Assembly (NCBI GenBank): GCA_963833575.1
Contig: CAWHXY010000004.1
Coordinates: 576,001-640,000 of the forward strand
From: Candidatus Bathyarchaeota archaeon
GTDB taxonomy: Archaea; Thermoproteota; Bathyarchaeia; Bathyarchaeales; Bathycorpusculaceae
Direction: 5' to 3'
Length of the DNA: 64,000 bases
The position numbers were made by a program, and so were the translations under genes. Every line of letters begins with the position of its first letter. The stretch's first letter is position 1. The notes below the pieces were generated by a model. That model was given only the letters and a program-made list of their open reading frames with translations, did no database searches and had not been told where the DNA came from. This document shows, piece after piece, positions 20,147 through 36,042 of the stretch.

Positions 20147-20173
20147 CCTACGTTAATCTTGTCCTTTTTTTGT

Positions 20174-20659: not shown

Positions 20660-20808
20660 AATTTCTCCCATCCGCTTAATGTTAAATCTTATTCATCAAG
20701 CTTTCGGAAATTTTTTTTCACAATAATGCCAAGATCAAGATTATTTCAATATTTTGCTCGAGCCTTAATTAAGAAAGAAAACATTAAGGAAAAACCGATC
20801 ATGGATTT

Positions 20809-21063
20809 TTACTTGATTTGCTTTTTTCGTCGCACACTAATGCCACCTTTGGGTTTAGCGCTTCTACTTCCTTTACTTTCTCCACCTTTTCGCCCTATTT
20901 CCTTAAAGAATTCAGTTCCTCGTTCTTTAGCCACTTTTTCGCCACCTTTTCTGCCGATTTCCCTAAAAAATTCTGGACCACGCTCTCGAGCTACTTTTTG
21001 CCCACCTTTTCTGCCAGCTTCTTCACGGGTTAACTTTCTTCTTTGTTCACTTTCAACTGTCAA
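20809..21063 (-). CDS. KGG-repeat general stress protein (GsiB/Em-like)
   Basis: EAGRKGG, EFFREIGRKGG repeats; GGAGGTGA RBS. Confidence 0.85.
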   Translation of the reverse strand: MTVESEQRRKLTREEAGRKGGQKVARERGPEFFREIGRKGGEKVAKERGTEFFKEIGRKGGESKGSRSAKPKGGISVRRKKQIK

Positions 21064-21227
21064 AATCATTCACCTCCAGTTTTCAATCAAGAAAAGTTAT
21101 TTTCTTAGCTTTTTAAGGACAGCTACGAATAAGCGATTTTAGCAAAAAGGTCACAAACTAAAGAAACAAGACAAGTCAGCTATCTCTTTCTGCGCCGAAA
21201 CAAAAAGAAACAAGAAAAACTCATCAG

Positions 21228-21494
21228 TTATTCTAATTTGCCTATCTCTTTGGTAATGTCAATCGGCGAAGTGTAAGTCTTATTTGGCAGCTTGTTTAAC
21301 AAGCCAATAACGTCATCAGGAGCGTCTTTGTTCTCAGCAGTATCTATTAATTTCTGCCTTTCTGCAGGAAAATGCATGCCAGCAAGATACTTTTCCACGA
21401 TCGCTGGACTTACATGCCCAGATTTTCCGCTTCTATTTGTATATTTACGTCTTGTTCCTCTAAGTCTAGTTACTTCAGTATCCTGTTTACTCGT
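21228..21494 (-). CDS. DUF2795-like protein with apparent ACG start (missed by ORF track)
   Basis: ...VSPAIVEKYLAGMHFPAERQKLIDTAENKDAPDDVIGLLNKLPNKTYTSPIDITKEIGKLE*; GGAGGTGA RBS then 6 nt then ACG. Confidence 0.75.
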   Translation of the reverse strand, partial: TSKQDTEVTRLRGTRRKYTNRSGKSGHVSPAIVEKYLAGMHFPAERQKLIDTAENKDAPDDVIGLLNKLPNKTYTSPIDITKEIGKLE

Positions 21495-21565
21495 TACCTT
21501 TCACCTCCACAAAATATTAGGCTGTTAACTTAAACAAGAAAAATCTCTCATTTTCCCTAATCCTG

Positions 21566-21739
21566 CTATTCTTCTTCGAACTCTTTTCCTTCTTGAATGA
21601 GCTTACGAACTCTTCGCCCGCCTTTGCTTCCTATTTCACTGTAAAATTCTGGACCATGAGTCATAGCTGTTTTCTCTCCACCCATTCGACCAGCCTCAGC
21701 AACAGTCATCTTGCCTTTCCTATGAGTCTCACCCACCAA
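21566..21739 (-). CDS. KGG-repeat general stress protein
   Basis: MTVAEAGRMGG..TA.THGPEFYSEIGSKGG. Confidence 0.85.
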   Translation of the reverse strand: MVGETHRKGKMTVAEAGRMGGEKTAMTHGPEFYSEIGSKGGRRVRKLIQEGKEFEEE

Positions 21740-21810
21740 AATCACCTCCAAAAAAATTCGTTATAACTATCTAACCTAACAATTTTCCTAACTTCTAGCC
21801 TGAAACATGA

Positions 21811-21846
21811 CTCTTAAACATATGTGGCTGTCTTTGCACAATAACA
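21811..21846 (-). promoter_or_regulatory. Conserved promoter A of the KGG cluster
   Basis: Matches 22625-22660 at 18/21 then 8/9 positions with identical spacing. Confidence 0.6.
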
Positions 21847-21971
21847 GAGGGCAGAGAACCTTTTGTTCAAAGAAAAATCTAAGTCAAACTAACAGCAAGA
21901 ATAGCAAAAGCCTAGAACATGGAAAATCATGAAATCCTTTTCAAATATCAAAATCAAGATTACAGCATTAC

Positions 21972-22160
21972 TTACCGTTCTTCGTATTCTTTTCCTTCTT
22001 GAATAAGCTTATGGGCCCTCTGTCCGCCCTTTGGTCCGCCGATTTTTCCACCTTTGCGACCAATTTCACTGTAAAATTCTTCTCCATGCATCTCAGCAGT
22101 TCTTAAGCCGCCCTTTCTTCCAGCTTCTGCAACAGTCATCTGACCTTTTTTCTCTGACAA
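21972..22160 (-). CDS. KGG-repeat general stress protein
   Basis: MTVAEAGRKGG..TAEMHGEEFYSEIGRKGG. Confidence 0.85.
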   Translation of the reverse strand: MSEKKGQMTVAEAGRKGGLRTAEMHGEEFYSEIGRKGGKIGGPKGGQRAHKLIQEGKEYEER

Positions 22161-22246
22161 AGTATTTCACCTCCATTAAAAAAAAGAACTCTAAAGTTAA
22201 ATTAACATAAATTTTGAATCGAGCAAAATAGGGCAGAAAGAAGATT

Positions 22247-22564
22247 TTATTCTGCTTCGCGCTCTTTACCTTCTTGAATCAGTTTTCGGACTCTTTGTCC
22301 ACCTCGGTGACCTGCTTCTTCAAGGCTTGTTTTCCCTGCAGCTGCAGTAGTGCCTTCATGTTGCTTAGCTCTCTCAGAACCACCTTTGCTTCCAATCTCA
22401 CTGTAAAATTCAGGTCCACGTTCTTGAGAAACCTTTTCGCCGCCTTTGCGACCTATTTCTTCGTAAAATTCGCGACCGTGTGTTGCCGCGGTTTTTTCGC
22501 CGCCTTTCCTTCCTGCCTCAGCAACAGTCATCTTGCCTTTTCTATTTTCATCACGCATACTCAA
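22247..22564 (-). CDS. KGG-repeat general stress protein (GsiB-like)
   Basis: Four KGG/RGG repeats, HGREFYEEIGRKGG. Confidence 0.88.
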   Translation of the reverse strand: MSMRDENRKGKMTVAEAGRKGGEKTAATHGREFYEEIGRKGGEKVSQERGPEFYSEIGSKGGSERAKQHEGTTAAAGKTSLEEAGHRGGQRVRKLIQEGKEREAE

Positions 22565-22624
22565 AACTCATTCACCTCCCATTGTAGTGCGGAAAACTAA
22601 ACATGATTAGAAGCCAAATAACCC

Positions 22625-22660
22625 CTCATAAACTTATGTGGTTGTAGCCTAACAGTAACA
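22625..22660 (-). promoter_or_regulatory. Conserved promoter B of the KGG cluster
   Basis: Diverged copy of 21811-21846 at a similar distance from the start codon. Confidence 0.6.
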
Positions 22661-22800
22661 TGGTAACTAAACATCTAAAAGGAGTCTCGAAATGAAACAG
22701 ATAAACAAACAGGTAATACATCGGAAAATAAAGATTAATCAACAGTATAAGTTAACTTAAATATCCGGAATTTGTCAACATAAATCGTTAGGTAACTTGA

Positions 22801-24279
22801 ATGAAAGTGCTTCTTGTTAATCCGCCTCAAACATTTTATCCAGGCTCAGAACAGCCGGCAGGAAATATTCCTTTGGGCTTGATGTACATTGGGGCGGTTC
22901 TTGAAGGAGCAGGTTACAAATCTGAAATATTGGATGCGTTCATGGCTGATTGTTTGTTCCAAAAAAAAGGCGAAACCATCAACGTTGGAATGCCGTTTGA
23001 TCAAATACTACAAGAAATTCGCATTCGCAAACCCGACATTGTCGGCATAGCAGGACCATTTTCGAGTCAAATAGAAAATTCAGTTAAAATAAGCGAGTTA
23101 GCCAAACAAGTTAACCCAAGTATTTTAACAGTTGTAGGCGGTCCCCACGTCACTACGGTACCGAAAGAGTTTCTTGAAGAAGCAAAAAATGTTGACGTCG
23201 CTGTAATGGGAGAAGGAGAATACGCCATGCTTGACATAGCCAAGTTTTTTGAAGGCAAAAAAGAGCTGCATGAAATTCTTGGAGTCGCCTACCGTCAAAA
23301 TGGAAAAGTGATGATAAATTCTCCCAGACCCTTCATCAGAAACTTAGATGAACTTCCATACCCTGCCTACGACTTAATCGATATGGAGAAGTATTTAACT
23401 AACAAAAAAATAGGGTACCGCAGCTTCAGAAACAGAGCAATATCGATGGTAACAAGCAGAGGATGCCCCTTTAACTGCTGTTTTTGTTCCGTTCATCTAC
23501 ATATGGGCAAGGAGTTTAGAGCCCACTCTGCAAGGTACGTTTTAAAACACATCGATTATGTTGTGGAAAAATTCAATGTCCAGAACATTTTTTTTGAGGA
23601 CGACAATCTTACCTTTGACTTAAGCAGGTTTGAAGCAATCTGTGACGGATTAATTGAGAAGAAAATTAAGATTGGTTGGGAAACACCAAACGGCGTTAGA
23701 GCAGACCGCTTAAACTTAAAGTTGCTTCAAAAAATGAAAAAATCAGGCGCCCAAAGCGTATTTTTCGGTGTAGAATCAGGCGACCAGCAAATCTTGAACA
23801 ATGTAATTTACAAGAGCCTAGACTTGGACCGAGTTGTGGAGGTCGCAAAAATTTGCAAGGACATTAAATTAAAAACCGGCGCATTTTACATTATCGGTTT
23901 TCCAGGCGAAACCAAAGAGAACATGCAGAAAACCGTTGATTTTGCTTTAAAGCTTAAACGGGATTTTGATGTTGGAATGCATCTGTTCATCGCTACTCCG
24001 TCATACGGGACGAGATTGTATGACGAATGTAAAGCTAAGGGTTACATTCGAGAAGATTTGAGTTGGAATTCTTTTGCTGAAGCACGTCAACCCAAAGGTA
24101 TGCCTCTGATTTCGACTGAAGACTTTTCCCCTCAAGAAGTCAAAGAGATAGCTGCTAAAGCGCTTGAGGAGTACAAAAAACTATCTTTATTGAACCATAT
24201 TAAAAATCCGAAAAAAGCGTTAAAGACAGCATTTGATCAACCACAACTAATTTTGAAATACATCAAAAACTTGTTATAG
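22801..24279 (+). CDS. B12-binding radical SAM protein
   Basis: PLGL.YI, VVGGPH, GEGE, TSRGCPFNCCFC, GVESG. Confidence 0.93.
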   Translation: MKVLLVNPPQTFYPGSEQPAGNIPLGLMYIGAVLEGAGYKSEILDAFMADCLFQKKGETINVGMPFDQILQEIRIRKPDIVGIAGPFSSQIENSVKISELAKQVNPSILTVVGGPHVTTVPKEFLEEAKNVDVAVMGEGEYAMLDIAKFFEGKKELHEILGVAYRQNGKVMINSPRPFIRNLDELPYPAYDLIDMEKYLTNKKIGYRSFRNRAISMVTSRGCPFNCCFCSVHLHMGKEFRAHSARYVLKHIDYVVEKFNVQNIFFEDDNLTFDLSRFEAICDGLIEKKIKIGWETPNGVRADRLNLKLLQKMKKSGAQSVFFGVESGDQQILNNVIYKSLDLDRVVEVAKICKDIKLKTGAFYIIGFPGETKENMQKTVDFALKLKRDFDVGMHLFIATPSYGTRLYDECKAKGYIREDLSWNSFAEARQPKGMPLISTEDFSPQEVKEIAAKALEEYKKLSLLNHIKNPKKALKTAFDQPQLILKYIKNLL

Positions 24280-24328
24280 GCAAGGAGTGCGGCAAAATTT
24301 TGGAGTATTCAGGCAACTCCAAACATTG

Positions 24329-24470
24329 GAAGAAGAAGAAAACTTGCGGTGTGCACACTTCTTCTTCTTTGCAAGCTTAGAAGAAGGAGGACAATCGCAG
24401 GGAGCACCGTCCTCCTTCTTCTTTCAAGAGAAGAACAACAACAGTTGCCCGTAGCACCGGGTTGTTGTTC
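24329..24470. repeat. Array of three tandem hairpins with variable stems and conserved loop motif ANTYGC-N5-GCAC
   Basis: Stems 24329-38/24358-67, 24379-92/24409-22 and 24433-42/24461-70 are perfectly complementary; a fourth 8-bp hairpin lies at 24299-24323. Confidence 0.75.
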
Positions 24471-24552
24471 GTCTTTAGATAAAAGCCCAATCGAAAAATT
24501 TAGGATAACTTGCATTTTTTGCCATACCAATTAGTTTGAAGCGGAACTGCTG

Positions 24553-24580
24553 GGATTCGCCTAAAAGTTTAATCGAATCT
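24553..24580. repeat. 28-bp 11-6-11 dyad site 1
   Basis: GGATTCGCCTA-AAAGTT-TAATCGAATCT preceded by tRNA-3'-like GCGGAACTGCTG. Confidence 0.65.
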
Positions 24581-24782
24581 TTTCTCAGAATAGCAATCAA
24601 TACGGCGGCGATCATATCTTAATTACGATGCGAATATTTATAGTCGAAGTTTACCTATCTTAGTCTGCGGAATGGAGCCGCATTGTGTAACTGGAAAGAA
24701 GGGAGACTACCAAACTCGAAGATCCCGAGAAATGGGTCTTTGCTTCTGAGCCATTCTGTATTTGTGTGCAGGTTGAAGAATT

Positions 24783-25682
24783 ATGACTGAAGGATTAAAC
24801 ACTATTATGAACAGGCCATTTGAAGTAGATAACTCAGAATACCCGTTCAAAGACAACTGGCTATCTTATCGTGATGGGTATATTCATTATCTTGATGAGG
24901 GAAAAGGACCTACTCTTCTGCTTCTTCACGGAAATCCCACGTGGTCATATATTTACAGAAATATCATCAAGGAATTGCGAGGAGAATGTCGCTTAATCGC
25001 TTTGGATTATCCGGGATTCGGGATGTCAAAAGCACCTTCCCAATATGGGTTTACACCCCAAGAATAGTCAGAGGTGGTCCTCGAATTGATCCGTCGCTTG
25101 GAATTAAAGAGCATCGTCCTTGTGGTTCAAGATTGGGGTGGACCTATCGGTATGAACTATGCAGTTCAGAACAGATCAAACCTTCGCGGACTTGTGGTAA
25201 TGAACACTTGGGCATGGCCCGCATCCTTTCTTCAAAGACTATTCTCCCTTGTTATGGGAGGATGGCCCATAGGGTACTGGCTTCAAACACACAGAAATTA
25301 CTTTGCAAAAGCAATGTTACCCGATGGGATTTTCCACAAAGAAAAGGTTACGCCTAGTTTGAGAAAAGCCTATACTGACCCATTTCCGACGGTGAACTCA
25401 AGGAAACCCACCTATATTTTCCCGGGGCAGATCCGAAAAGCGCATGCGTGGCTGGGAAAGATTGAGTCAAAACTCCCGATTCTGGGGGACCTGCCAGCAC
25501 AAATTCTCTGGGGAAATAAGAACGACCCCGGTTTCGGACCTAAAGAACTGGAAAAGTGGCAAGGATTTCTAAAGATGCATGAAACTGAGACCATTGATGA
25601 TGCTTCACACTCTGTTCAAGAGGATCGACCTGATCGGGTTGTCGCGGCTATCCGAAGAGTTCTTGAGAGAACGCACGGCTAG
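24783..25682 (+). pseudogene. Haloalkane dehalogenase-like alpha/beta hydrolase with in-frame TAG at 25065-25067
   Basis: HGNPTWSY, DYPGFG.S, VQDWGG, ASH..QED; the two ORFs are in the same frame, split by one TAG. Confidence 0.85.
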
Positions 25683-25902
25683 GTCTTATTAAAGTAGTTT
25701 GAAATGTCTCATAGCTAAGGGCACTTCTTACCGAGGTCCAGCGCACTCAATCTTCTCCAGAATCTCCCACAATTGCCGACTCCTTGACACAATATTTAGC
25801 AAACGCTAAAACTCTTTTTAATGAAAGAAATGCGAAGCAATAAAGTGAACTCTTCTAGAATGACTAATGCGCGCACTTCGTCTCGTTCAAGCTTGTATTA
25901 TG

Positions 25903-25930
25903 GGATTCGTTTAATAAAATAGGCAAATCC
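25903..25930. repeat. 28-bp 11-6-11 dyad site 2
   Basis: GGATTCGTTTA-ATAAAA-TAGGCAAATCC. Confidence 0.65.
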
Positions 25931-25975
25931 TAAATTTTCCTTGGAAAAAAGTTAAGACGGGCCCGCTGGGACTCG
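25924..25975. repeat. Diverged direct copy of the tRNA-Arg 3' end plus downstream flank (att-like)
   Basis: CAAATCC..ATTTTCC.TGG...ACGGGCCCGCTGGGACTCG versus 32359-32409 CAAATCC..ATTTTCC.TGG...ACGGGCTCGCTGGGATTTG. Confidence 0.7.
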
Positions 25976-25996
25976 CTTAATTATTTAAGCGAATCC
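25969..25996. repeat. 28-bp 11-6-11 dyad site 3
   Basis: GGACTCGCTTA-ATTATT-TAAGCGAATCC fused to the tRNA 3' relic. Confidence 0.7.
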
Positions 25997-26320
25997 TAAG
26001 TAATAAGAACAAAACTTTCTTCGTAACAAGTGAACTGTGGGGATTTGAGCCTCTGCCAGAGTGGAGATATCAACCTAAGACCCAAAATTTTGTTGGCTTT
26101 ATGTCAAACTTCTGAAATACAAATTAAAATGAATGACTACCTTGCGCGCGCCACCTTTACTGCTAGCCAGCAAGCACGTGAGACACGGAAAGAAGGAATA
26201 GATTTCGAGTGGCAATTGTTGAGCGATCATAAGTTAATTGACGTTTTACTTAACTTTTCAGAAAGAAAAATGGGGTGATTGCTGTTTTCTCTATTCAGCC
26301 TTGTTCACATAGCCATGTTG

Positions 26321-26929
26321 TTAAGTGAACCAGTACGTGTAAGTTTCCTCATTAACGGAATACAAAGGTGCTCCGGTGATCGGATTACTTACGGTTACTC
26401 CCACAGACGACTCCGTTATCATATATATTCCTCTAAGCGTCCCGCTCGTACCGAACTGCGTTGCAACAGCCGAAGTTTGTAATCCGAAGAGCATGTCTCC
26501 ATGATGTACCGTTATTCCATAGGCTGTAATGTCAGGTCCATTATAGGTGAACAAGCCAAGTCCATTAAATTTAACGAATACGATGCCATGAGTAACTCCT
26601 GCTCCTGGATAGGTCCATACACTCGGCGAAACATCGGATCCAGTGAGTGTCTCTAAATTAAGTGTAATATAGTTTGTTTCTGTGTTTGTGGTTACTCCCC
26701 CTCCCCATGGTGCTCCAAATTCCGTCCATTTTCCAGTTGCTCCCGTTTGATGCATAACATTATTACTGTCCACATAGGAGGTCCCAGGACTGGTACCAAC
26801 GCCAATTCCATACCAAGTGAAAGAGCCATGTTTTGGCGTTTGTGTACATGCCATAGCTGGTGCAGATGCAACAAACACCATAAGCAAAGCAATAGAGAAA
26901 ACTAAAATCATAGTTCTTTTTATTTTCAT
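26321..26929 (-). CDS. Secreted beta-rich hypothetical protein
   Basis: Signal peptide MKIKRTMILVFSIALLMVFVASAPAMA; Gly/Thr-rich body; GGAGGTGA RBS. Confidence 0.75.
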   Translation of the reverse strand: MKIKRTMILVFSIALLMVFVASAPAMACTQTPKHGSFTWYGIGVGTSPGTSYVDSNNVMHQTGATGKWTEFGAPWGGGVTTNTETNYITLNLETLTGSDVSPSVWTYPGAGVTHGIVFVKFNGLGLFTYNGPDITAYGITVHHGDMLFGLQTSAVATQFGTSGTLRGIYMITESSVGVTVSNPITGAPLYSVNEETYTYWFT

Positions 26930-27138
26930 CTTTTTCACCTCCACTGACATCTTTGTCTTGTTCTGTGTCTAGAAAAATAATTAATCATTTTTCTAGTAGT
27001 AAATCACTTCATAATTCGTTAAAAACCAAAAATATTAGATTATTACGACAACCACTGTCGAATGAACACATTTACGTCATTAAACAGTCTATTGCGTTAA
27101 ATAATAGTTGGTTTTACTGAATAGAGTGCAAAATAATC

Positions 27139-27507
27139 TTATTGATTTTTCTTGTTCATTATTCTGTTATCAATAATGCGTTTTATTGTTTCTTTTTCGT
27201 AGGCAACTCTTAGTTTTAAGATTTTGCCGCCCCGACCCCTTTCACCTGGAAAGAATCGAGCTTCAACTAGACCCCGACTCTCCAATTCAATCAACGCCTT
27301 TCCCCTGCGTCCTCCATAGCCATACATACTGGACCTTGACAACCTTCCTTCATTAATAATATTCATTAAAGATCTCCAACCAGCTTTTTCCTGTGCAATT
27401 CTACGTTGCATATAATCTTCGACAAAAGCTCTTACAAGACAGTCAAAGGCTTTCTGGGCAACTTCAGATTTGAACTCAAATCTATCGAATATGACCGAGG
27501 TGACCAT
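27139..27507 (-). other. Duplicated C-terminal wHTH domain of the STAND ATPase (122-aa ORF)
   Basis: Identical to the parent's C-terminal domain and carries what is probably the original KKNQ* end. Confidence 0.6.
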
Positions 27508-28111
27508 TTCTCCATTAATAGCGGAAGATACAGGTTCAACATGTATCTTTACAGGTATAATGGTGCTCGTTTTGGTCTTTCCTAACTCATCTAAATAAAC
27601 TACTTTCGGGTTAGAGTTGAAAACCCCTATTTTTCTTGTTCATTATTCTGTTATCAATAATGCGTTTTATTGTTTCTTTTTCGTAGGCAACTCTTAGTTT
27701 TAAGATTTTGCCGCCCCGACCCCTTTCACCTGGAAAGAATCGAGCTTCAACTAGACCCCGACTCTCCAATTCAATCAACGCCTTTCCCCTGCGTCCTCCA
27801 TAGCCATACATACTGGACCTTGACAACCTTCCTTCATTAATAATATTCATTAAAGATCTCCAACCAGCTTTTTCCTGTGCAATTCTACGTTGCATATAAT
27901 CTTCGACAAAAGCTCTTACAAGACAGTCAAAGGCTTTCTGGGCAACTTCAGATTTGAACTCAAATCTATCGAATATGACCGAGGTGACCATTTCTCCATT
28001 AATAGCGGAAGATACAGGTTCAACATGTATCTTTACAGGTATAATGGTGCTCGTTTTGGTCTTTCCTAACTCATCTAAATAAACTACTTTCGGGTTAGAG
28101 TTGAAAACCCC
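27145..28111. repeat. Tandem direct duplication of 483 bp (27145-27627 = 27629-28111)
   Basis: Constant offset of 484 nt; no differences seen by eye; identical translations. Confidence 0.92.
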
Positions 28112-30847
28112 AGCTTTCAATGCCTGCAAAGTAAGCTTCACAGTCACAACTTGAAAAGCGCCAATTTCCTTGTTTTTCGTCTCAATGCAAAAATTCTTGA
28201 AATCGAAATTGGGCGACAGAGCGGTAACTTTGAATCCGTCCGAAGGAATTATGCCCTCAACTTTGATGAACACGCCTGGCTTCCGTGAGGCGTTCACCAA
28301 ATCGAGACGCATCTCCAACTCTTCGCCAACCATAACTTCTTTACGAACCATCAAATGCGTTTGTAAATTAACATGGGCAAACCTTTGTTCAATTTCTTGA
28401 ACAGCATTCTGCAATTCTTCACTCTGAACCCTAGCCTCCTCAAATCGACCTTCCTTCTCAAGAGCCCAAACATAAAATGTTTTTCCATAAATTTCAGCTC
28501 CGATTGGAGTGGGTATGGTTGGCATCACAACCTCATCAAATAGTCGTTCTTTGAAACATCGGTTTGCGTCTTTCCACTCGCTTTTTCCTGTGAAAAAGAC
28601 TGCTTTGGACAGTGCTCCCTCTACAAACACGTTCTTTTGCACTTCAGCAGGCAGTTTCACGAATTTGTCAAAGTATTCTTCTGCGTGCTTCAAGTCTCCA
28701 AGTCGGGAATATATCCTAGAAAGGTTAGTATATACAATCCCTGGGGCTATGAGATTATCTGTTTTCTTTGATGCCTCCAAAGCTTTCAGACAGTAAGACA
28801 GCGCCTTTTCCCAATCGCCCATAAGCTCATATGGTCGAGCCGAAAAAGCATTTGCATAGACCAACCTGTTATACTCACCCATTTTCAATTTCTCATCAAT
28901 TTCTATAACTTTCGCAAACATCCCTAACGCTTCTTGATTAAGTCCCAAATTGCAGAAGTTTTCGCCTGCTGGCCAGTAGGCCTCCATTTGGAAACGAAAA
29001 TCACCCAGTTCCTCAAAAAGTACAATCGCGCGCAACGACTCAGCTATTCCTTCATAGGAATTGCCAAGCAGAGAATGGTACATTCCCACTCCAACCAAAG
29101 CCAATGCGAAGTCCCAATAAGAATGCTCTTCCTCAAAAATACGCAAAGCATTTGCCATGTCTTCAAGCGCAAGCTTAACATTCCCCTGCCCGAAAAAGCT
29201 GACTCTTCCTCGGTTAATTAGAACTCTTGCGTTTTCTAACCGATCGCATTCAAAATATGGTTCAGCTTTGTTGATCAGTTCCATTAATTGAGGAATATCC
29301 ATGCATTGAAAAGCAGATTCCATTGCCTTTCTTAAAGCGCGCAGCTTTGTGATGCCCGTTTCATTCTTGCCCAATTCCTCGAATGTTCTAATTGCTTCTT
29401 TGAACATGCTATTGGCGTAGTAAGCGTCTCCCAATCCCTCCCAAGCCTTTCTTCTATTTTCAGCGTTTTTAGTATTTCCGGCGAGGCTACCCAAAATATA
29501 AGTGAAGTGTTTGATGGCTTCCTCGTTGCTCCACCTCAGTAGTGCATCTCGTCCAGCGAGAAAGGAGTATTTCACCGCTTTTTCCTTATTTCCCGCTTGA
29601 GCGTAATGAAACGCCAAGTCATCAATTGAGAAACCATTCGCTTCATAGATGCCAGCTTCAATTTTCTCTGCAATCCTCGAATGGTACTCTTTTCTTAGGA
29701 GTGGAGGGATTTCCTCGTAAAGCATTTCTCGAGACTTTTCGTGACTAAACCTGCAGCAGTTTTCATCACAATGTATAATCAATGTGGTTTTTGCAGTCTC
29801 ATTTAGTGCTCTTAGAACGCTTGCATAGTCTTGTAACACTGCGGCAGCGATTAACTTGGGATCAAATTTTTCTCCCACTACAGAAGCTGCATCTAAGACT
29901 ATTCTTTGATCGGATTTCAAGGATTCTAATCTTAGCAGCATCACGTCCTTAATTTTTTTTGGAATTTCAAAGTTATCAACGCGGAGACTCCACTTACCGT
30001 TAGTTTTGATGAGTCTTCCTTGTTGATGCATCATTCTTAGAGATTCCACGACAAAAAGAGGATTGCCCATGGTATCGGTTGCTAACTTTTCCCCAAAATC
30101 TGAGAGCACTAATCCGCCTAACATGTTCTCAGCGATTCTTCGAACATCATCTTGGCTGAGGCTGGAAAGTTTAACTTCTCGGTAGAGATCCTCCCGCCCC
30201 ATTAGAAGTAGTTCTTTGGATAGTGGATTAGGATGACCTTCAATATTTACGTTGAGTCCCTCGCTTCTGAAAGTTGCTATGATGAGAATTCTCTCAGAAA
30301 CCGCTTGGCGGGCAAGATAATGAAGCAACGAAAGAGAAGCTGAATCAGCCCAGTGAAGGTCCTCCATAACTAAAATCAAGGGTTTTTTCGTTGATAAGAA
30401 CAGCAGTTCTTTAGCGATTGCCACAAACACCTGATCCTTCCATACTAGAGGAGATGTGTTTCCAAGTGTCTCGTTTGCTTCAGATTGATTTTTGATAAGC
30501 CATGATTTCATGCTTAATTGCTGATTAGCAATCGTTCCTCCATAGTGTTCATTGCTTGATATGTAAGAGTCAAAGGCTTCCATGAAGGGGAAGTAGGGAA
30601 CTGCGACGTTGCTTAGGCACCAGCCAGATAAGACAGTGACTTGCTTCTTCTTGACGATGTTTAAAAATTCTGTGGTAAGTCTGGTTTTTCCTGCGCCCGC
30701 CTCTCCAGAAATAAAAACGGTTACTCCTTTCCCTGACGAAGCCTGGGCTAAGCATCGTTTCAACTCTTCAAGCTCTTTTTCTCTTCCCACTAGAATTGGT
30801 TCAGCTAAGATTCCAGAAGTCAATTCTTGATTTTGCGCCCATTTCAA
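27611..30847 (-). CDS. STAND-like AAA ATPase with TPR repeats, Ig-like domain and C-terminal wHTH
   Basis: LVGREKEL, GEAGAGKT, MEDLHWAD, GNPLFV, FSH; TPR helices; beta-sandwich; wHTH (ELESRGLVEARFFPGERGRGG). Confidence 0.88.
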   Translation of the reverse strand: MKWAQNQELTSGILAEPILVGREKELEELKRCLAQASSGKGVTVFISGEAGAGKTRLTTEFLNIVKKKQVTVLSGWCLSNVAVPYFPFMEAFDSYISSNEHYGGTIANQQLSMKSWLIKNQSEANETLGNTSPLVWKDQVFVAIAKELLFLSTKKPLILVMEDLHWADSASLSLLHYLARQAVSERILIIATFRSEGLNVNIEGHPNPLSKELLLMGREDLYREVKLSSLSQDDVRRIAENMLGGLVLSDFGEKLATDTMGNPLFVVESLRMMHQQGRLIKTNGKWSLRVDNFEIPKKIKDVMLLRLESLKSDQRIVLDAASVVGEKFDPKLIAAAVLQDYASVLRALNETAKTTLIIHCDENCCRFSHEKSREMLYEEIPPLLRKEYHSRIAEKIEAGIYEANGFSIDDLAFHYAQAGNKEKAVKYSFLAGRDALLRWSNEEAIKHFTYILGSLAGNTKNAENRRKAWEGLGDAYYANSMFKEAIRTFEELGKNETGITKLRALRKAMESAFQCMDIPQLMELINKAEPYFECDRLENARVLINRGRVSFFGQGNVKLALEDMANALRIFEEEHSYWDFALALVGVGMYHSLLGNSYEGIAESLRAIVLFEELGDFRFQMEAYWPAGENFCNLGLNQEALGMFAKVIEIDEKLKMGEYNRLVYANAFSARPYELMGDWEKALSYCLKALEASKKTDNLIAPGIVYTNLSRIYSRLGDLKHAEEYFDKFVKLPAEVQKNVFVEGALSKAVFFTGKSEWKDANRCFKERLFDEVVMPTIPTPIGAEIYGKTFYVWALEKEGRFEEARVQSEELQNAVQEIEQRFAHVNLQTHLMVRKEVMVGEELEMRLDLVNASRKPGVFIKVEGIIPSDGFKVTALSPNFDFKNFCIETKNKEIGAFQVVTVKLTLQALKAGVFNSNPKVVYLDELGKTKTSTIIPVKIHVEPVSSAINGEMVTSVIFDRFEFKSEVAQKAFDCLVRAFVEDYMQRRIAQEKAGWRSLMNIINEGRLSRSSMYGYGGRRGKALIELESRGLVEARFFPGERGRGGKILKLRVAYEKETIKRIIDNRIMNKKNRGFQL

Positions 30848-31086
30848 ACTCTATTTTTAAGATAGTTGTAATGATATAAAAGTACTATTTCAAATTTAGG
30901 AATAAGTTAAAAAATAATTACGTCAATTCACAACACATTCATTTAAAGTCAAGTAATTTGTTTGCAAAATTCTCCTTGACAGAATCAATTATGACTTATT
31001 TGTTAACCTTCTTTATTTTTTGAGAATTAATAAAGCTCGCGCTATAACTAAAATCTAAATATTAGGAATATAAATAAGGGAAAAAC

Positions 31087-32328
31087 ATGAGTACACCACA
31101 ATCTGCTGTCAAGAAAAGGCTTAAAAGCCAATTGTTTGTGCCTGCCTTGCTTTTAGGTATGTTCTTAACATTCACATTTACAGTTTTCTTTAGTAATGCT
31201 ATGGTAAACGTAGCCTCGTCGCTAAAAGTTACTGTGGGAACAGCTAGCCAGATTTTGACCATCAGTTCTTTTGTGGGTCTTGTTGTAGGTTTTGTCATGG
31301 GCGTTTTGACAGTCCGATTCAAGCAGAAGTCATTGTTCCTGCTTGGAGTGGCACTTTTCAGCGTCGGAGCTATAGGTTGGTTTTTCGCCCCAGATTTTGC
31401 CTCTGCACTTTTCTTTAGCCTCTTTCTTGGAATTGGCACAGCAATGACTGGCACAGTTGTTTTCGCGTTAATTGGAGATTTTTTGCCTTTGGAAAAGAAG
31501 GGAATGTCAGTTGGTTTAGCTATGGCTGGTGTATTTATTGCGGACTTGGTTGTGCCTCAAGTAACGAGCGTAATTACGAATGCTGCAGGGTGGCGCGCTG
31601 TACTTTTATGGTTTATCTTTCCATTGTCCGTAGTTAGTTTGCTCTTTGGTTTTTTCATTCTTCCGTCAAAACCGCGGCAGGAACAAACTGCAAATAAGCC
31701 TCAATATTTGAAAACTTTCAAACAAATCTTGCTAAACAAATCTGCACTTGCATGTGTACTTGCAACGGCGCTTATGTGGGTCTCATTCCTAACGCCTGTT
31801 TATGCAGTATCATTTTACAGATTGTTTTTTAAGGAGACTTTGAGCATGGGCGCGATCTTTTATTCGATCGCTTCAGTAATGGGGATTATGGGTGTCATAT
31901 TTGGGGGGCGATTGATTAATCGAATCGGAAGGAAGCCCCTCACCGTCGTGACAGGTGTGATTCAGGGTGTATTCGCAGTTTTGATCGCCTTTATGCCTAA
32001 CCCATTGGCTTCTGCGGTAATGTGGATGATATCGGCTGGTTTCGCCAGTGTAACGATTACGGGTCTCACCAGTTTAGCGCTTGAACAAGTCCCAAGTTTT
32101 CGAGGCACTATGATGTCTCTAAACACATCATTTCAGAACATTGGTCTCATTGTGGGATTGGCTATAAGCAGTTTTGTGCTAAACGTTTACGCTAACAACT
32201 TTCAAATCCTGTACGCAATGTTTGGGATATGTGGTGTAGCCTCAGCCGCCGTTGTGTTCTTGTTTGCAAAAGATCCCTGCAAAAACCAATTGCCCCAGCT
32301 ACCTGATCGAAAACTAACCCAACCTTGA
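31087..32328 (+). CDS. MFS transporter
   Basis: About 12 TM segments, GWRAV, GGRLINRIGRK motif A, RGTMMSL. Confidence 0.92.
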   Translation: MSTPQSAVKKRLKSQLFVPALLLGMFLTFTFTVFFSNAMVNVASSLKVTVGTASQILTISSFVGLVVGFVMGVLTVRFKQKSLFLLGVALFSVGAIGWFFAPDFASALFFSLFLGIGTAMTGTVVFALIGDFLPLEKKGMSVGLAMAGVFIADLVVPQVTSVITNAAGWRAVLLWFIFPLSVVSLLFGFFILPSKPRQEQTANKPQYLKTFKQILLNKSALACVLATALMWVSFLTPVYAVSFYRLFFKETLSMGAIFYSIASVMGIMGVIFGGRLINRIGRKPLTVVTGVIQGVFAVLIAFMPNPLASAVMWMISAGFASVTITGLTSLALEQVPSFRGTMMSLNTSFQNIGLIVGLAISSFVLNVYANNFQILYAMFGICGVASAAVVFLFAKDPCKNQLPQLPDRKLTQP

Positions 32329-32391
32329 ACTAACGGTCGACGAATAGTTAAGACGAAACAAATCCACATTTTCCATGGGGTTAATTAAAAA

Positions 32392-32489
32392 CGGGCTCGC
32401 TGGGATTTGAACCCAGGATTTTCGGCTAACTCCCGCTTCTATGAAGCGTCCGGAGGCCGACGCCTTAATCCGTACTAGACTACGAGCCC
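32392..32489 (-). tRNA. tRNA-Arg(CCG) with 22-nt intron at 37/38 (32428-32449)
   Basis: Acceptor GGGCTCG/CGAGCCC, anticodon arm TCGGC-CTCCGG[intron]A-GCCGA, T-arm GGTTCAAATCC; intron hairpin CGCTTC/GAAGCG. Confidence 0.93.
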
Positions 32490-32534
32490 ACAGTTTACAA
32501 ATCAACATGCCTATTTAATTTAAAGCTAACTTTG

Positions 32535-33038
32535 TTATTCTTGGATTAGCTCTTCATCTATCCACCAAGCCTTCTTTTTCCCAGAACGTTCGCCAGCATA
32601 GTATTCAATTATTGATTTTCCAATTTGTTTTTTTGAATTACGCTGGATTTTTCTGAGCCTGTTGAGTATGAGCCACCTGTTGGTTTTTAGGTACTCGGCT
32701 AATTCAGGGGTCGTTGCGCTTTTGTAGTTTAATATATATTCCATTATTTTATGATCTACGTCATCGATACAGTAAGAATGTGGATTTATTTTTCCGTGCT
32801 GAAATGTGAGCAGTTCCAAATCAGCAAGGTATTTTCTGATTTGTCCAAATTCCTGCTCTATTTTCCCCATTCTCCCTTCCAACGCTAAGAGCTTGTCTGC
32901 TTTAGGTGTTTTCTGCAACTTTTCGCTTATGGCTTCTCTGATAAAAGAGCTACGATCACCTTCAGGAATACGCAACGCCATTTCTTGATAAACTGTTTCA
33001 GGAATCTTCACAGTTACAATTCTTACTTCGCTCAACAT
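32535..33038 (-). CDS. RHH + coiled coil + wHTH transcriptional regulator
   Basis: VTVKIPE...RSSFIREAI; C-terminal HTH ATTPELAEYLKTNRWLILNRL; divergent from the aldolase-fold/FBPase pair. Confidence 0.75.
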   Translation of the reverse strand: MLSEVRIVTVKIPETVYQEMALRIPEGDRSSFIREAISEKLQKTPKADKLLALEGRMGKIEQEFGQIRKYLADLELLTFQHGKINPHSYCIDDVDHKIMEYILNYKSATTPELAEYLKTNRWLILNRLRKIQRNSKKQIGKSIIEYYAGERSGKKKAWWIDEELIQE

Positions 33039-33261
33039 TGGCGCCTCAATAATCTTATGCATCGTCTTATTATTTCATAGTTTCTCTAAAATTTTTAATT
33101 TACAAAATAAATTTGTTTATTAGCTGGCGTTAGCGTAAGAGATTTTTTGGATTAAATATTTACAAATTAATTTTGAAATATCGATTGGCATTGAAATGCA
33201 TAACCGCTAGGGCAATAATATTTATGTGGGAAGCACAAAATAGAGGATACGGTGACTTAAG

Positions 33262-34179
33262 TTGATTGATTGGTCCCAAAAACAGTTATTAATTCTCGCA
33301 TTTGACCATCGAGCGTCATTTCTGGAAAAAATGTTTGAAATTAAGAATCGTCAACCCACATCTGAAGAAAAAAAGGAAATTGAAGATTACAAGAAAATCA
33401 TTTTCGAAGGCTTCAAACTTTCTGTAAAAAAGAAGGTCCCGAAAGAAATTGCGGGTTTGTTGGTAGATGAAGAGTTTGGGAGCGCCGTTCTTCGAGAAGC
33501 TAAAAAAAACGGATTAACATTTGCTATGCCTGTAGAGAAGTCCGGTCAGGATGAATTTGACTTCGATTACGGTGAGAACTACGCAAAACACATCGAAGAG
33601 TTCGACCCAACTTTTGTGAAAGTCTTGGTACGCTACAATCCTGAAGGCGATACAACTTTAAACAAAAGACAACTTCAAAGATTAAAGAAACTCAGCGATT
33701 ACTTGGCACAAAAAAAGAAACCCTTCCTCTTTGAACTTATTGTACCTGCATTACCAGCGCAATTAGCAAAACTTGGGGGATCAAAAGAAATTTACGATAC
33801 AGAGTTGAGACCAAAACTCATGGTAAGCAGCCTAAAGGAAATTCAGGCGGCAGGAGTTGAACCGTCTATTTGGAAATTAGAAGGCGTTGACAAACCTGAG
33901 GCGGCAAAAGCAGTGGTTAAACAAGCACAAAGTAATGGAAGGAAAGCCGGAGTTATAACTCTGGGTCGAGGAGAATCTAAAGAAAAAGTACAAGAATGGC
34001 TGAAAGTCGGAGCCAAAATACCGGGCATCATTGGGTTTGCCGTAGGAAGAACTATTTTCTGGCAACCATTGGCGGATTACAGAGCAGGCAAGAATAATAG
34101 AAAAGAAGCGGTGGAAAAGGTTGCCCAAAACTATATAGAGTTTACAGAGTTATGGCTAAATGAATGTAAAAGGAGCTAA
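33262..34179 (+). CDS. DUF2090 (IolC C-terminal-like, class I aldolase TIM barrel)
   Basis: LAFDHR, PVEKSG, KVLVRYNP, WKLEG, LGRG, GFAVGRTIF. Confidence 0.85.
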   Translation: MIDWSQKQLLILAFDHRASFLEKMFEIKNRQPTSEEKKEIEDYKKIIFEGFKLSVKKKVPKEIAGLLVDEEFGSAVLREAKKNGLTFAMPVEKSGQDEFDFDYGENYAKHIEEFDPTFVKVLVRYNPEGDTTLNKRQLQRLKKLSDYLAQKKKPFLFELIVPALPAQLAKLGGSKEIYDTELRPKLMVSSLKEIQAAGVEPSIWKLEGVDKPEAAKAVVKQAQSNGRKAGVITLGRGESKEKVQEWLKVGAKIPGIIGFAVGRTIFWQPLADYRAGKNNRKEAVEKVAQNYIEFTELWLNECKRS

Positions 34180-34183
34180 AAAA

Positions 34184-35167
34184 ATGACTTCACTAAGATC
34201 TTTATCCCCATCATTAACAAGAATCACTACTGCTGGAGCAGTAGGCGCAGCTCTCCACATTGGTAAAGGAGATCCAGACAAAGTTGACCAAACTGCTTTG
34301 GATTTTTCTAGAGCTGTTTTAAACCAGACTGAAGTAGATGGCGAAGTTATTTGTTGTGAGGGACCCAAAGACAACGCTCCGGCGTTCAGTTACAGAGAAA
34401 AAGTTGGCACTGGAAACGGACCTAAAGTGGAATTTGTAATCGACCAGGTTGACGGTACAACAGCAACCTCCAAGGGAAAGAAAGATGCGATTTCAGCGTT
34501 AGCGTGTGCTCCGGCAGGTTGTTTGCAAGTTCTTCCAGACGACGGATATTATTTCAAGATTGCAACCAACGGCTTATCAAGAGGAAAAATTTCACCCGAT
34601 ATGTCGATTGAAGAAATAGTACAAACCGTAGCTTCATGCAAAAAGCTGCAGCTTCCAAATTTCACGGTAATTATGCTTGAGCGCGAGAGACATGCAGACT
34701 TGCTTAAAAAACTAAGAAATATGGGCGTAAGGATTATTTTGATTACTGACGGAGATATTGCAGGTTCAATTGTTACTTGTTTACCTGATTCAGGTATTGA
34801 CTTGCTTATAGGTGCAGGAGCCGGTGCTGAAGCGACCATTGCTGCCACGGCGGTAAAATGCCTTGGCGGAACTATGCTTGTGAAAGTTTGGAAAGATAAA
34901 AAAGATGATGCGAACCGAATGAAACGGCTAAAAGCTGCTGGCGTCGATGTCGATAAAACATACAATGAAGCGGAACTAGCAAAGGGCAATGAAATGATCT
35001 TTGCAGCTTCTGGCGTAACTAAAGGCGAAATGCTTGATGGTGTACGATTTACTCCTACGGGTGCAATTGTCAAGTCTTTTTGTACTAGGCTACCAAGTGG
35101 AACCATTGAGAGATCAGAAACCATTTTGAAATTTAGCGGCCACCCAGTATATAGTCAAATAACTTAG
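34184..35167 (+). CDS. glpX: Class II fructose-1,6-bisphosphatase (GlpX family)
   Basis: CEGPKDNAP, DQVDGT, RERH, ITDGD, ASGVTKGEMLDGV. Confidence 0.88.
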   Translation: MTSLRSLSPSLTRITTAGAVGAALHIGKGDPDKVDQTALDFSRAVLNQTEVDGEVICCEGPKDNAPAFSYREKVGTGNGPKVEFVIDQVDGTTATSKGKKDAISALACAPAGCLQVLPDDGYYFKIATNGLSRGKISPDMSIEEIVQTVASCKKLQLPNFTVIMLERERHADLLKKLRNMGVRIILITDGDIAGSIVTCLPDSGIDLLIGAGAGAEATIAATAVKCLGGTMLVKVWKDKKDDANRMKRLKAAGVDVDKTYNEAELAKGNEMIFAASGVTKGEMLDGVRFTPTGAIVKSFCTRLPSGTIERSETILKFSGHPVYSQIT

Positions 35168-35325
35168 AAACAATTCATTTCTTTTTTTTCTTTTAGATTT
35201 TCCATAGGATATTTTCGGGAAAACATGGTTTTCATGTTTATAGCAATCAAAAATTGAATGAGGTTATAGCTGGGACTCTTGAATTAAGCGTTTAATTAAC
35301 GAGTCACTTCAAATTAAAACTATGC

Positions 35326-35883
35326 TTATTCAGTGGGTTGACCTGCCAACTTAGCCAAGCAAAGATATCTTTGTTCAACGATACCGAGAAGTTTTTTCCG
35401 TAAATCTTCACCAGCCAAGTTTTTCTTTTTTAGCAAACCCGTTTTTTTGGCCAATTCCGCATCACCTAGCATCTTGAACCAGGCTTCAAAGTCGCCTCGT
35501 TGCATGTGAAAGTCTACTGAGACTATGTCTGCTTTGTCGAGTTTGTGAGCGAAATCTCGCAAGTTATGTGCATGGAGGTTTAGTGGTTTTCCCACTGTGA
35601 CATAGAAATTGAATGCTCTGTCGTGAGCTGCGTAGCCGAGTATTGCTACTGCTTTCTCTTTGCTAGTTTCGGGTATGCCGAGTGCGTTCTTTCCTTTTTC
35701 AGTTATGATATATAGTCCTTTTTCAGGTGAGTTAACATAACCCATCCTTGTGAGTCCTAAAAGATGCATCATAGTTGGCGGAAACTCTTTTTTGCTTTCA
35801 CTAGCGATCTCTATAGCTTTCATTGGTTTTTCATTTAGAAGCATTGTTTCTAGTATTTCTTGTTTGACAGGTGATAAACTCAT
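35326..35883 (-). CDS. wHTH + DUF5752-like domain protein
   Basis: N-terminal wHTH (YIITEKG); C-terminal F.FY..G....A..L..F...S.DFH.QRGDFEAW. Confidence 0.7.
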   Translation of the reverse strand: MSLSPVKQEILETMLLNEKPMKAIEIASESKKEFPPTMMHLLGLTRMGYVNSPEKGLYIITEKGKNALGIPETSKEKAVAILGYAAHDRAFNFYVTVGKPLNLHAHNLRDFAHKLDKADIVSVDFHMQRGDFEAWFKMLGDAELAKKTGLLKKKNLAGEDLRKKLLGIVEQRYLCLAKLAGQPTE

Positions 35884-36042
35884 GTTGTAGGCACCTTGCC
35901 TGTAACTGACTATGCAGAAGGGTCTAATCAAACTTTGCCTTAACTTTTTATAGTCCTTCCGTTTCAAGTTTGTTTTGTTAGATTAAGTAAAGCTTTTAGT
36001 GTAGTGATTGCAAATGCTATGGTAAATCGGTGACAGGACAGA

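Follow-up and report, generated by a model that had tools for sequence, protein, structure and literature searches.

How do accessory genes come to be stacked beside a transfer RNA (tRNA) gene when the inserted DNA carries no recognisable enzyme for its own integration? The question is raised by a 64,000-nucleotide stretch of the genome of a Candidatus Bathyarchaeota archaeon (GenBank assembly GCA_963833575.1, contig CAWHXY010000004.1, positions 576,001 to 640,000; referred to here as the window), in which a tRNA-Arg(CCG) gene and the insertion next to it occupy positions 24541-32490. The insertion consists of two tandem cassettes, an older one with an alpha/beta hydrolase gene and a younger one with genes for a STAND NTPase and a major facilitator superfamily (MFS) transporter, and both are bounded by 28-bp dyads. 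An earlier note, made from the letters alone, had described a tRNA-anchored array of cargo modules delimited by such dyads, and in this it was right: the cargo varies among relatives, empty sites exist, and the same module occurs at different tRNA genes. The two cassettes are probably members of a genus-wide family of small non-autonomous integrative cassettes at tRNA-Arg 3' ends, which would recombine through a tRNA-derived core with an enzyme supplied in trans. The source genome (G000) is 2.75 Mb in 8 contigs, with 41% G+C, an estimated completeness of 94%, and 44 tRNA genes, several of which contain introns.

Insertion at the tRNA-Arg gene

The radical S-adenosylmethionine (SAM) gene at 22801-24279 on one side, and the tRNA gene with the gene at 32535-33062 on the other, are syntenic flanks in four related genomes (G003, G035, G023, and G030), and tblastx against these four gave no match between 24285 and 32391. 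Eighty loci encoding the radical-SAM protein were fetched, 45 of which hold a minus-strand tRNA-Arg gene downstream; the gap between the two genes ranges from 10 bp to 7.9 kb in the 45 loci, and nine of them have dyads in the gap. In the closest relative (L084; 92% amino acid identity for the radical-SAM protein) the gap to tRNA-Arg(CCG) is 194 bp and has no dyad, and the tRNA 3' end and its flank align with the tRNA fragment beside the first dyad of the window and with the DNA to the left of that fragment, so the native intergenic DNA comprises 24280-24540, and the insertion extends from 24541 up to the tRNA. Dyads are likewise missing from the empty sites in G006, where the gap is 165 bp, and at the tRNA-Arg(GCG) gene of G000 itself, and L038 and several other loci are empty as well. 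Since the empty sites have no dyads, the dyads arrive with the inserted DNA. The absence of an encoded CCA was considered as a mark of element-derived tRNA ends and was dropped, as the empty site L084 also has no CCA.

The inserted region begins, next to the native intergenic DNA, with a displaced and decayed tRNA-Arg 3' fragment (24541-24552, minus strand), which reads GCGGAACTGCTG, aligns with the intact tRNA 3' end of L084, and serves as the distal attachment (att) core of the older cassette. Fused to it is site 1 (24553-24580), the degenerate dyad at the far end of the hydrolase cassette; a dyad in this position is called dyadB, and the dyad at the tRNA-proximal end of a cassette is called dyadA. 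Site 1 has an AAGT centre and the cassette-specific signature GCCTAA..AATCT, which is also present in G131 and G028. The only cargo of the older cassette is the alpha/beta hydrolase gene (24783-25682, plus strand), which belongs to the haloalkane-dehalogenase-like fold family (Pfam Abhydrolase_1, 1.2e-24 on the read-through translation) and is interrupted by a TAG codon at 25065-25067; it corresponds to the dehalogenase that the earlier note had placed between sites 1 and 2, and is a pseudogene here. Site 2 (25903-25930) is the dyadA of this cassette and has a cassette-specific right arm, ATAGGCAAATCC, with identical or near-identical copies beside the hydrolase in G087, G131, and G028. It is followed by a 28-nucleotide spacer (25931-25958), TAAATTTTCCTTGGAAAAAAGTTAAGAC, which contains the small palindrome TTTTCC-TT-GGAAAA.

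The junction of the two cassettes is completed by a second tRNA-Arg 3' fragment (25959-25968, minus strand), the att core at this point, which reads GGGCCCGCTG; its tRNA homology may extend into the adjoining dyad (GGGACTCG), and the matching position in G086:C29 holds a tRNA-like end with the T-loop CGAGTCC. The adjoining dyad, site 3 (25969-25996), is the dyadB of the tRNA-proximal cassette and the commonest dyadB variant of the genus. The proximal end of that cassette is a degenerate dyadA, ending ..AAATCC at 32365, with its spacer (ACATTTTCCATGG..AAAAAC); the whole unit (about 32332-32392) aligns with dyadA-spacer units of seven other loci. It adjoins the intron-containing tRNA-Arg(CCG) gene (32391-32490, minus strand; ARAGORN, and 51.6 bits with the Rfam tRNA model), the attB-bearing anchor of the array, which is intact and reads GGGCTCGCTGGGATTTG on the same strand as the two fragments. 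Sites 1 and 3 are thus each fused to an antisense tRNA 3' end, as had been reported.

The dyad motif

The pattern given in the earlier note, GGATTCGYYTA-N6-TARRCGAATCC, matches 24553-24580, 25903-25930, and 25969-25996 with 2, 1, and 1 mismatches, and none of 100 dinucleotide shuffles gave any dyad match, so the three dyads themselves stand. The whole G000 genome has only six matches at up to four mismatches, of which five, including the three in the window, look real. Outside the window, a perfect copy at C4:104985 lies 2 nucleotides downstream of the encoded CCA of tRNA-Arg(TCT), and a weaker dyad at C6:287492 is followed by a spacer and a truncated tRNA-like sequence. At the latter locus (C6:287492-287580) a degenerate dyad is accompanied by an Arg(TCT)-type fragment, a spacer, and a shortened tRNA-like stretch (GGAGCCGCTGGGACTCGAACCC) not called by ARAGORN; the locus appears to be what is left of a cassette site at a tRNA that was lost or has become a pseudogene.

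At up to three mismatches the same pattern is present in 19 of 36 congeners, and outside the genus two of 24 genomes from other families in the order have one three-mismatch match each; a reversed control gives 0-1 matches per genome. A revised pattern finds dyads at up to two mismatches in 54 of 120 Candidatus Bathycorpusculum-like genomes and none in the other 66, and its reversed control has no match in any of the 120; the motif is a feature of the genus as a whole. The highest counts are 22 dyads in G065, 16 in G087, and 11 in both G066 and G086. Viral contigs in IMG/VR gave no dyad match.

The consensus of 55 aligned copies is GGATTCGCTTAA-N4-TTAAGCGAATCC. The 28-bp length reported earlier is retained, but the conserved geometry is 12-4-12 rather than 11-6-11: conservation is 90% or higher in the right arm, positions 4, 5, 8, and 9 of the left arm vary, and the four central positions are variable, with a few dominant centre alleles (TTAT, ACTA, AACA, and TGTA). 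The proposed mimicry of the tRNA T-arm is borne out, as the arms carry CGAATCC, the canonical T-loop and the start of the T-stem, and in some copies this sequence is continuous with tRNA homology.

A palindrome with a variable centre is typical of operators, and dyadA follows tRNA genes closely on their downstream side, in many cases with TTTT after it on the sense strand of the tRNA; the dyads might thus be unrelated to recombination and act instead as hairpins in RNA or DNA (terminators or insulators behind tRNA genes) or as transcription-factor operators. Against this, the empty tRNA-Arg loci have no dyads, and in almost every case the dyads go together with displaced tRNA fragments and with the borders of variable DNA. 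The two arms pair in 88.7% of cells over the 55 dyads, compared with 88.8% in shuffles, double changes number 1 against 1.4 expected, and 18 of the 39 distinct sequences are unpaired at position 5. No consistent run of T is seen at dyadB, and an Rfam scan of positions 20000-36000 of the window returned the tRNA and one chance microRNA match and nothing else. A role of this kind is very improbable. The absence of covariation indicates that the symmetry reflects two conserved half-sites, of the type bound by a dimeric protein, and not a selected hairpin, and the dyads look like putative protein-binding half-sites.

Cassettes at other tRNA genes

At most of 22 relatives' loci a dyad is fused on one side to an antisense tRNA-Arg 3' end, TGGC-GGGYCCG-(C/A)TG, followed by GGAT..., and this combination of a tRNA-Arg 3' fragment with a dyad is referred to as fragment+dyadB. 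Fragments of the GATG type are found near tRNA-Arg(TCT), and those of the GCTG type near tRNA-Arg(CCG) or tRNA-Arg(GCG). Fragment+dyadB is identical to the tRNA over 14-18 nucleotides, starting at the 3' end and reaching into the T-loop (17 nucleotides in the CGAGTCC variant of G086:C29). Many occupied tRNA-Arg genes have a second dyad, dyadA, downstream, usually at a distance of about 23-28 nucleotides, with a range from 2 nucleotides at Arg(TCT) loci to 45 nucleotides at L120. The spacer of about 28 nucleotides is conserved and contains TTTTCC-NN-GGAAAA. The unit of dyadA, spacer, and tRNA end aligns across 11 loci and the three isoacceptors tRNA-Arg(CCG), (GCG), and (TCT), an alignment that includes site 2 of the window with its spacer and the site-3 fragment as well as the degenerate copy at about 32332-32392, and the spacer is conserved in eight of the 11. 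Followed in tRNA orientation, the general succession is tRNA, then spacer, dyadA, cargo, dyadB, and tRNA fragment.

The hydrolase is present in ten of the 120 genus genomes, with 82-95% amino acid identity. It is uninterrupted in five, has in-frame stops in three (G000, G066, and G028), is split in G084, and is partial at a contig end in G086. The uninterrupted homologues in five genomes indicate that the TAG codon in the window marks a pseudogene and not recoding, and ARAGORN found no tRNA-Pyl.

The same hydrolase cassette is found at more than one tRNA gene. In G131 it stands alone, in the order fragment, dyadB with the same AAGT centre as site 1, hydrolase, dyadA with the sequence of site 2, 23-nucleotide spacer, and tRNA-Arg(CCG). 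In G028 it adjoins tRNA-Arg(GCG), with a further dyad, spacer, and fragment on its distal side, and this tRNA gene and its upstream flank match the empty Arg(GCG) locus of G000. A less clear case is G079, where the hydrolase lies about 760 nucleotides downstream of tRNA-Pro(GGG), the 3' end of which resembles that of tRNA-Arg, and a shortened dyad and a decayed fragment are present at the far end. The hydrolase cassettes at Arg(CCG) and Arg(GCG) have in common rare variants in the outer half (GCCTAA/GTCTAA) and the inner half (..AATCT) of dyadB, dyadA over its full length (..TAAAATAGGCAAA..), and the spacer (TAATTCTTTTGGAAA). That two tRNA loci have such variants in both dyad halves indicates that whole dyads travel with the cassette.

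The cargo beside a conserved junction differs between close relatives, as expected from the earlier note's proposal of swapped cargo. G087 has dyads identical to sites 3 and 2 at the same junction, beside a hydrolase with 95% identity, and on the tRNA side it has genes for a pyrroloquinoline quinone (PQQ) propeller protein and a zinc-ribbon protein in place of the STAND and MFS genes. In G086:C29 a homologous pair of genes, for the STAND NTPase and the 209-amino acid protein encoded next to it in the window, is bounded by dyadA and dyadB with its fragment. The cargo of 12 other inter-dyad regions includes PKD/lactonase and NosD/PQQ surface proteins, ABC transporters, HxlR with an FMN reductase, a glycosyltransferase with an FAD oxidoreductase, sensor kinases, and two insertion sequence (IS) transposases. 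Cassettes are 1.3-7.5 kb in size and have one to five accessory genes, often several and in both orientations; a 9.9-kb inter-dyad stretch with sensor kinases in G085 may represent two separate loci. Tandem junctions that keep a tRNA fragment and spacer between two dyads are present in the window (25903-25996), in G087, in G028, and twice on the contig L210, a 5.2-kb contig that was the only result of a metagenome scan for the junction pattern and is an array rather than an autonomous element.

Public sequencing runs were searched as assembled Logan contigs; no run held more than a fraction of 0.24 of the sampled words, and the uncovered parts are uninformative. Small pieces of the region were found at 100% identity in one run. 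Runs from peat contain relatives of the hydrolase cassette at 90-95% identity, and in these the unit of fragment and site 3 has several different neighbouring sequences on each side. In one contig, 24279 and 25958 are connected by a stretch of undetermined letters.

Search for a recombinase

The earlier note had stated that no recombinase is encoded in the window, and the window proteins indeed have no match to PF00589 or PF00239. Among 34 cargo proteins from the 12 other inter-dyad regions there is no Phage_integrase domain; these 34 include all 14 of the listed open reading frames of at least 300 amino acids, and 20 of the 39 frames in that list were scanned. An enzyme acting in trans, as had been suggested, would therefore be needed, none being present in the window or in any module examined. 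No Resolvase domain was found in G000. The proposal of XerA as this enzyme does not fare well, as the best score with the NCBIfam XerA model is 68 bits against a cut-off of 220 among the proteins tested, namely two tyrosine recombinases of G000 (from an assembly that is 94% complete) and protein P0001 of G016, and as the dyads are multicopy, with no match in 66 of the 120 congeners.

A family of tyrosine integrases of a 476-amino acid type is present in 86 of the 120 genus genomes, with members in G000 at C7:18806-20230, C4:3595-4986, and C2:250-1584. Among 40 members inspected by eye, a tRNA 3' fragment or an entire antisense tRNA mostly comes after the gene within about 40-80 nucleotides. 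Members are 55-95% identical and adjoin different tRNA genes (Pro-GGG, Arg-TCT, Gln, and others), and a palindrome resembling AAAAnnGTACnnTTTT is conserved between the stop codon and the att core; the family looks like a natural series of specificity switches.

An integrase in G016:C6 that lies 82 nucleotides from a dyad was not counted as linked to it, since its own att fragment is of the tRNA-Pro(GGG) type. At this locus (L023, 4560-4650) the tRNA-Pro-type att fragment of the integrase element is followed, after 22 nucleotides, by a dyad fused to a tRNA-Arg fragment, which suggests that the element landed in a tRNA already bearing a solo-dyad scar. The tRNAs used by integrase elements and by dyad cassettes are alike at their 3' ends.

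The only physical link seen between an integrase and the dyads is in G003, where a 128-amino acid C-terminal integrase remnant lies beside tRNA-Arg(TCT) in an island bounded by dyadB. In G112 an intact integrase of the 476-amino acid type abuts tRNA-Arg(TCT); it lacks close relatives, and within 7.8 kb of it there is no dyad. Both cases speak for the cassettes being ordinary genomic islands that arrived with an integrase, had an attP that happened to carry dyads, and later lost the integrase, with no mobilisation in trans. The two cassettes of the window are decaying, with the hydrolase now a pseudogene and with site 1 and the proximal dyadA both degenerate, and decay into att-flanked elements without integration genes is documented in bacteria, as described in part of PMC5704250. 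Such an origin is nevertheless rather unlikely. The 12 inter-dyad regions have no integrase, nor do the two window cassettes; their small size (1.3-7.5 kb) and their housekeeping-type accessory genes do not resemble a plasmid or virus, and no dyad is found among viral contigs. A single-gene hydrolase cassette of 1.3 kb, with both dyads intact, is present at two tRNA-Arg loci and perhaps at tRNA-Pro, and some genomes have up to 22 dyads without adjacent integrases.

Position of the crossover

The reading that we favour, integration through the tRNA core by an enzyme acting in trans, can be set out as follows. The targets would be the 3' ends of tRNA-Arg genes (CCG, GCG, and TCT), and possibly of tRNA-Pro(GGG), and a cassette would comprise dyadB, one to five accessory genes, dyadA, and a spacer of about 25-28 nucleotides. 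Its circular form would have an attachment site made of dyadA, spacer, a tRNA-derived core of 14-18 bp, and dyadB. Recombination within the core would rebuild the tRNA next to the spacer and dyadA, and at the far end the tRNA 3' fragment that it displaced would stay attached to dyadB. If another cassette then entered the restored tRNA gene, it would be added on the tRNA side, so that in the window the hydrolase cassette (24553-25958) would have entered first and the STAND/MFS cassette (25969-32392) second. The four CGAATCC-type half-sites, which resemble the T-loop and T-stem, would most likely be contacted by a dimeric protein (the recombinase itself or an accessory factor), which could build the recombination complex on a core that is otherwise asymmetric. 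Palindromes contributed by the element to each side of the core could in this way supply symmetry or protein-binding arms.

The earlier note had instead treated the dyads themselves as the recombination sites, of the dif/pdif type or resembling integron attC sites, so that circles with one dyad would enter a resident dyad beside the tRNA by means of a host Xer-type or other tyrosine recombinase. The 28-bp palindromes do bound modules without an integrase, a dif site is described as 11-6-11 (in a section of PMC8371274), and with few dominant centre alleles an exchange between copies of the same allele is conceivable. This proposal does not agree with the structure of the tandem junctions, where tRNA fragment and spacer are kept between the dyads, which argues for a crossover in the tRNA core and not at the dyad centre. 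The travelling of whole dyads with the cassette points the same way: the outer halves of dyadB (GCCTAA) and of dyadA (ATAGGCAAATCC) appear to be cassette-specific at two tRNA loci, and do not look like hybrids. So do the empty target sites, which have no resident dyad for a circle to enter. An attP-like tandem junction is what would be expected if a second element integrated into a rebuilt tRNA, whereas exchange within dyads would not create such a junction. In addition, the centres of the two dyads differ in seven of the eight cassettes compared, dif is a single-copy site while the dyads occur in multiple copies and gave no match in 66 of 120 genomes, no XerA-grade protein was detected in G000 (94% complete), and there is none of the hairpin covariation that a folded attC would suggest. 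A crossover within the dyads is, on this evidence, unlikely.

Several observations weigh against integration through the tRNA core by an enzyme in trans. Solo dyads, in the order tRNA, spacer, dyad, and fragment, are present at tRNA-Arg(TCT) of G000 (C4:104985), in G004, and at L112 and L120. They are not produced by core recombination alone and would need a later deletion between dyadA and dyadB, and if the crossover were in the dyad they could be empty landing pads. One cassette on contig L210 is flanked by identical 28-mers, each followed by CAGCGG. Identical dyads are expected from a crossover at or beside the dyad, although they may also have arisen by chance, this allele being one of the most frequent in the genus. 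The assembled contigs of the public runs showed neither a circular form nor an excision junction, and the decayed copies in the window may by now have lost their mobility.

The same holds for the integrase families. A dyad was found in none of 40 flanks of the 476-amino acid type, and the dyad-rich genomes G086, G088, G064, and G108 have no member of that family at E<=1e-10. A second integrase family (frames of 383-450 amino acids), abundant in dyad-rich genomes, has a dyad half-site in none of 20 flanks. A tblastn search of the 45 gaps between radical-SAM gene and tRNA gave no integrase, with four in-frame queries only, all from one family. No recombinase was linked to dyads in the flanks and cassettes examined.

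Core recombination in trans remains the probable account, and it leads to a broader proposal, that Candidatus Bathycorpusculum has a dedicated cassette system, integron-like in function but built differently, in which an unlinked recombinase captures, stacks, exchanges, and deletes integrase-less cassettes at tRNA-Arg genes. Its composite site would consist of two palindromes that mimic the T-arm around a core derived from tRNA-Arg, and the recombinase might possibly be of an unrecognised kind. We put this proposal forward tentatively and regard it as possible rather than probable. If it is true, tRNA-Arg genes are cassette arrays that shape the accessory genome of an abundant lineage of peat and soil.

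Relation to known systems

In archaea, integrases favour a tRNA gene's 3' end, a target without dyad symmetry, as stated in a section of PMC8371274. The cassettes resemble the tRNA-targeting integrative elements of archaea (tyrosine-integrase islands and elements of the pNOB8/SSV type) in that the tRNA is rebuilt, a direct repeat is left at the distal end, empty sites exist, and tandem arrays are formed; in the window the tRNA is intact, relatives have an empty site, and the tRNA repeat is present at 24541-24552 and 25959-25968. Such elements encode their own integrase, however, while the window cassettes and the 12 other inter-dyad regions do not, apart from the one remnant in G003. The cassettes are also very small, have accessory cellular genes, and have two conserved 28-bp palindromes flanking the core. 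Accretion of this kind is known, and part of PMC6563490 describes the formation of arrays by re-use of one site.

Among bacterial elements, the closest in description are the cis-mobilizable elements (CIMEs) of Firmicutes, which according to part of PMC5704250 are flanked by att sites, have no integration genes, occur in tandem at tRNA 3' ends, and are decay products of integrative and conjugative or integrative and mobilizable elements (ICEs and IMEs) moved by a neighbouring helper. The descriptive definition of a CIME applies here, since both att sites are kept and neither integration genes nor a recombinase was found. The cassettes differ in forming a whole archaeal family with one conserved double-palindrome att architecture, in reaching 22 dyads per genome, and in having no helper seen adjacent to them.

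Modules of the pdif type and integrative mobile elements exploiting Xer (IMEX) have no recombinase of their own and are served by an enzyme supplied in trans. Xer/dif, IMEX, and pdif are like the present cassettes in their 28-bp palindromic sites and recombinase-less modules. A dif site is made of two 11-nucleotide inverted repeats and a 6-nucleotide spacer with the cleavage points at its ends, and is present once per chromosome, again according to a section of PMC8371274. The length of the dyads agrees with this, but their arms are conserved over 12 nucleotides and the four central positions vary; they number 4-5 in G000 and up to 22 in G065 and are missing from the matches in 66 of 120 genomes, so they are neither single-copy nor universal. 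The tRNA core between paired dyads, the travelling of whole dyads with the cassette, and the absence of a detected XerA-grade protein are further differences from Xer/dif and pdif.

Integron arrays are formed by small recombinase-less cassettes with imperfect palindromes at one anchor, and new cassettes are added on the anchor side. The likeness lies in the arrays of small palindrome-bounded cassettes at one anchor. There is, in contrast, no intI/attI platform, with no PF00589 match in the window, and the anchor is a tRNA gene. Unlike attC, the dyads are conserved in sequence and not in structure (88.7% pairing against 88.8%), the core appears to be derived from tRNA, and the cassettes are often multigene with genes in both orientations.

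The Dehalococcoides islands that are specific to ssrA are, according to PMC3146451, horizontally acquired and hold accessory metabolic genes, and in this respect, acquired accessory genes at a small RNA gene, they are comparable. The cassettes considered here have, for their part, the paired dyads described above. The Dehalococcoides islands are tandem and bounded by direct repeats, with integrases of their own, and to our knowledge they have not been reported with paired palindromes flanking the core.

The main-text section of the genome paper on Bathy-6 (Candidatus Bathycorpusculum) mentions islands and lateral transfer and has no tRNA cassettes (PMC11697101). The literature searched on Bathyarchaeia integrases and tRNA, archaeal attP inverted repeats, CIMEs, and archaeal elements without integrases, with the supplements of PMC11697101 outside its scope, describes no such cassettes. 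Integration at tRNA genes and accretion are thus known, and what seems to be new by this comparison is a conserved att architecture of two 28-bp palindromes around a tRNA core in cassettes without an integrase.

Bathyarchaeia are abundant in peat, soil, and sediment and mostly uncultured, and gene exchange among them is poorly known. The dyad motif provides a handle to chart the mobile gene pool of the genus, including hydrolases, transporters, STAND NTPases, PQQ propellers, and sensor kinases. An attP-like sequence of about 94 bp (25903-25996 of the window) and a tRNA attB are defined for use with candidate recombinases, a possible route to site-specific integration tools for a lineage without genetics. 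The case also illustrates how palindromes brought by the element, in imitation of the T-arm, may complement the asymmetric core of a tRNA 3' end.

Other features of the region

The cargo between site 3 and the tRNA includes the STAND ATPase and the MFS transporter named in the earlier note, and the protein it called secreted has a signal-like N-terminal helix by which secretion is suggested. This protein (26321-26950, minus strand; 209 amino acids) belongs to no Pfam family, and its homologues adjoin STAND genes in G086:C29, G086:C19, G086:C200, and G087:C13. The STAND NTPase (27611-30847, minus strand; 1078 amino acids) has AAA_16 and TPR domains in Pfam, and homologues are present in 36 of the 120 genus genomes. 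A pseudogene fragment (27142-27744, minus strand) duplicates the C-terminal 200 residues of the STAND NTPase with 85% identity and five stops; it is a local partial duplication of the STAND gene, to which the 122-amino acid open reading frame at 27139-27507 belongs. The MFS transporter (31087-32328, plus strand; 413 amino acids) matches Pfam MFS_1 at 9.7e-38. PADLOC gave no match for the STAND NTPase, the 209-amino acid protein, or the MFS transporter. The proximity of the 209-amino acid protein and the STAND NTPase in several genomes suggests that the two genes may work as a unit, perhaps in defence or sensing.

Positions 24285-24480, which separate the radical-SAM gene from the fragment of site 1, contain three strong hairpins with purine-rich stems (GAAGAAGAAG.../...CTTCTTCTTC). 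As RNA this run folds with -73.4 kcal/mol (z = -5.0), none of 200 shuffles folds as well, and there is no Rfam match. The run is partly conserved in the empty site L084, and a contig of one public run loops back 96 in this region, which suggests that the number of units is variable.

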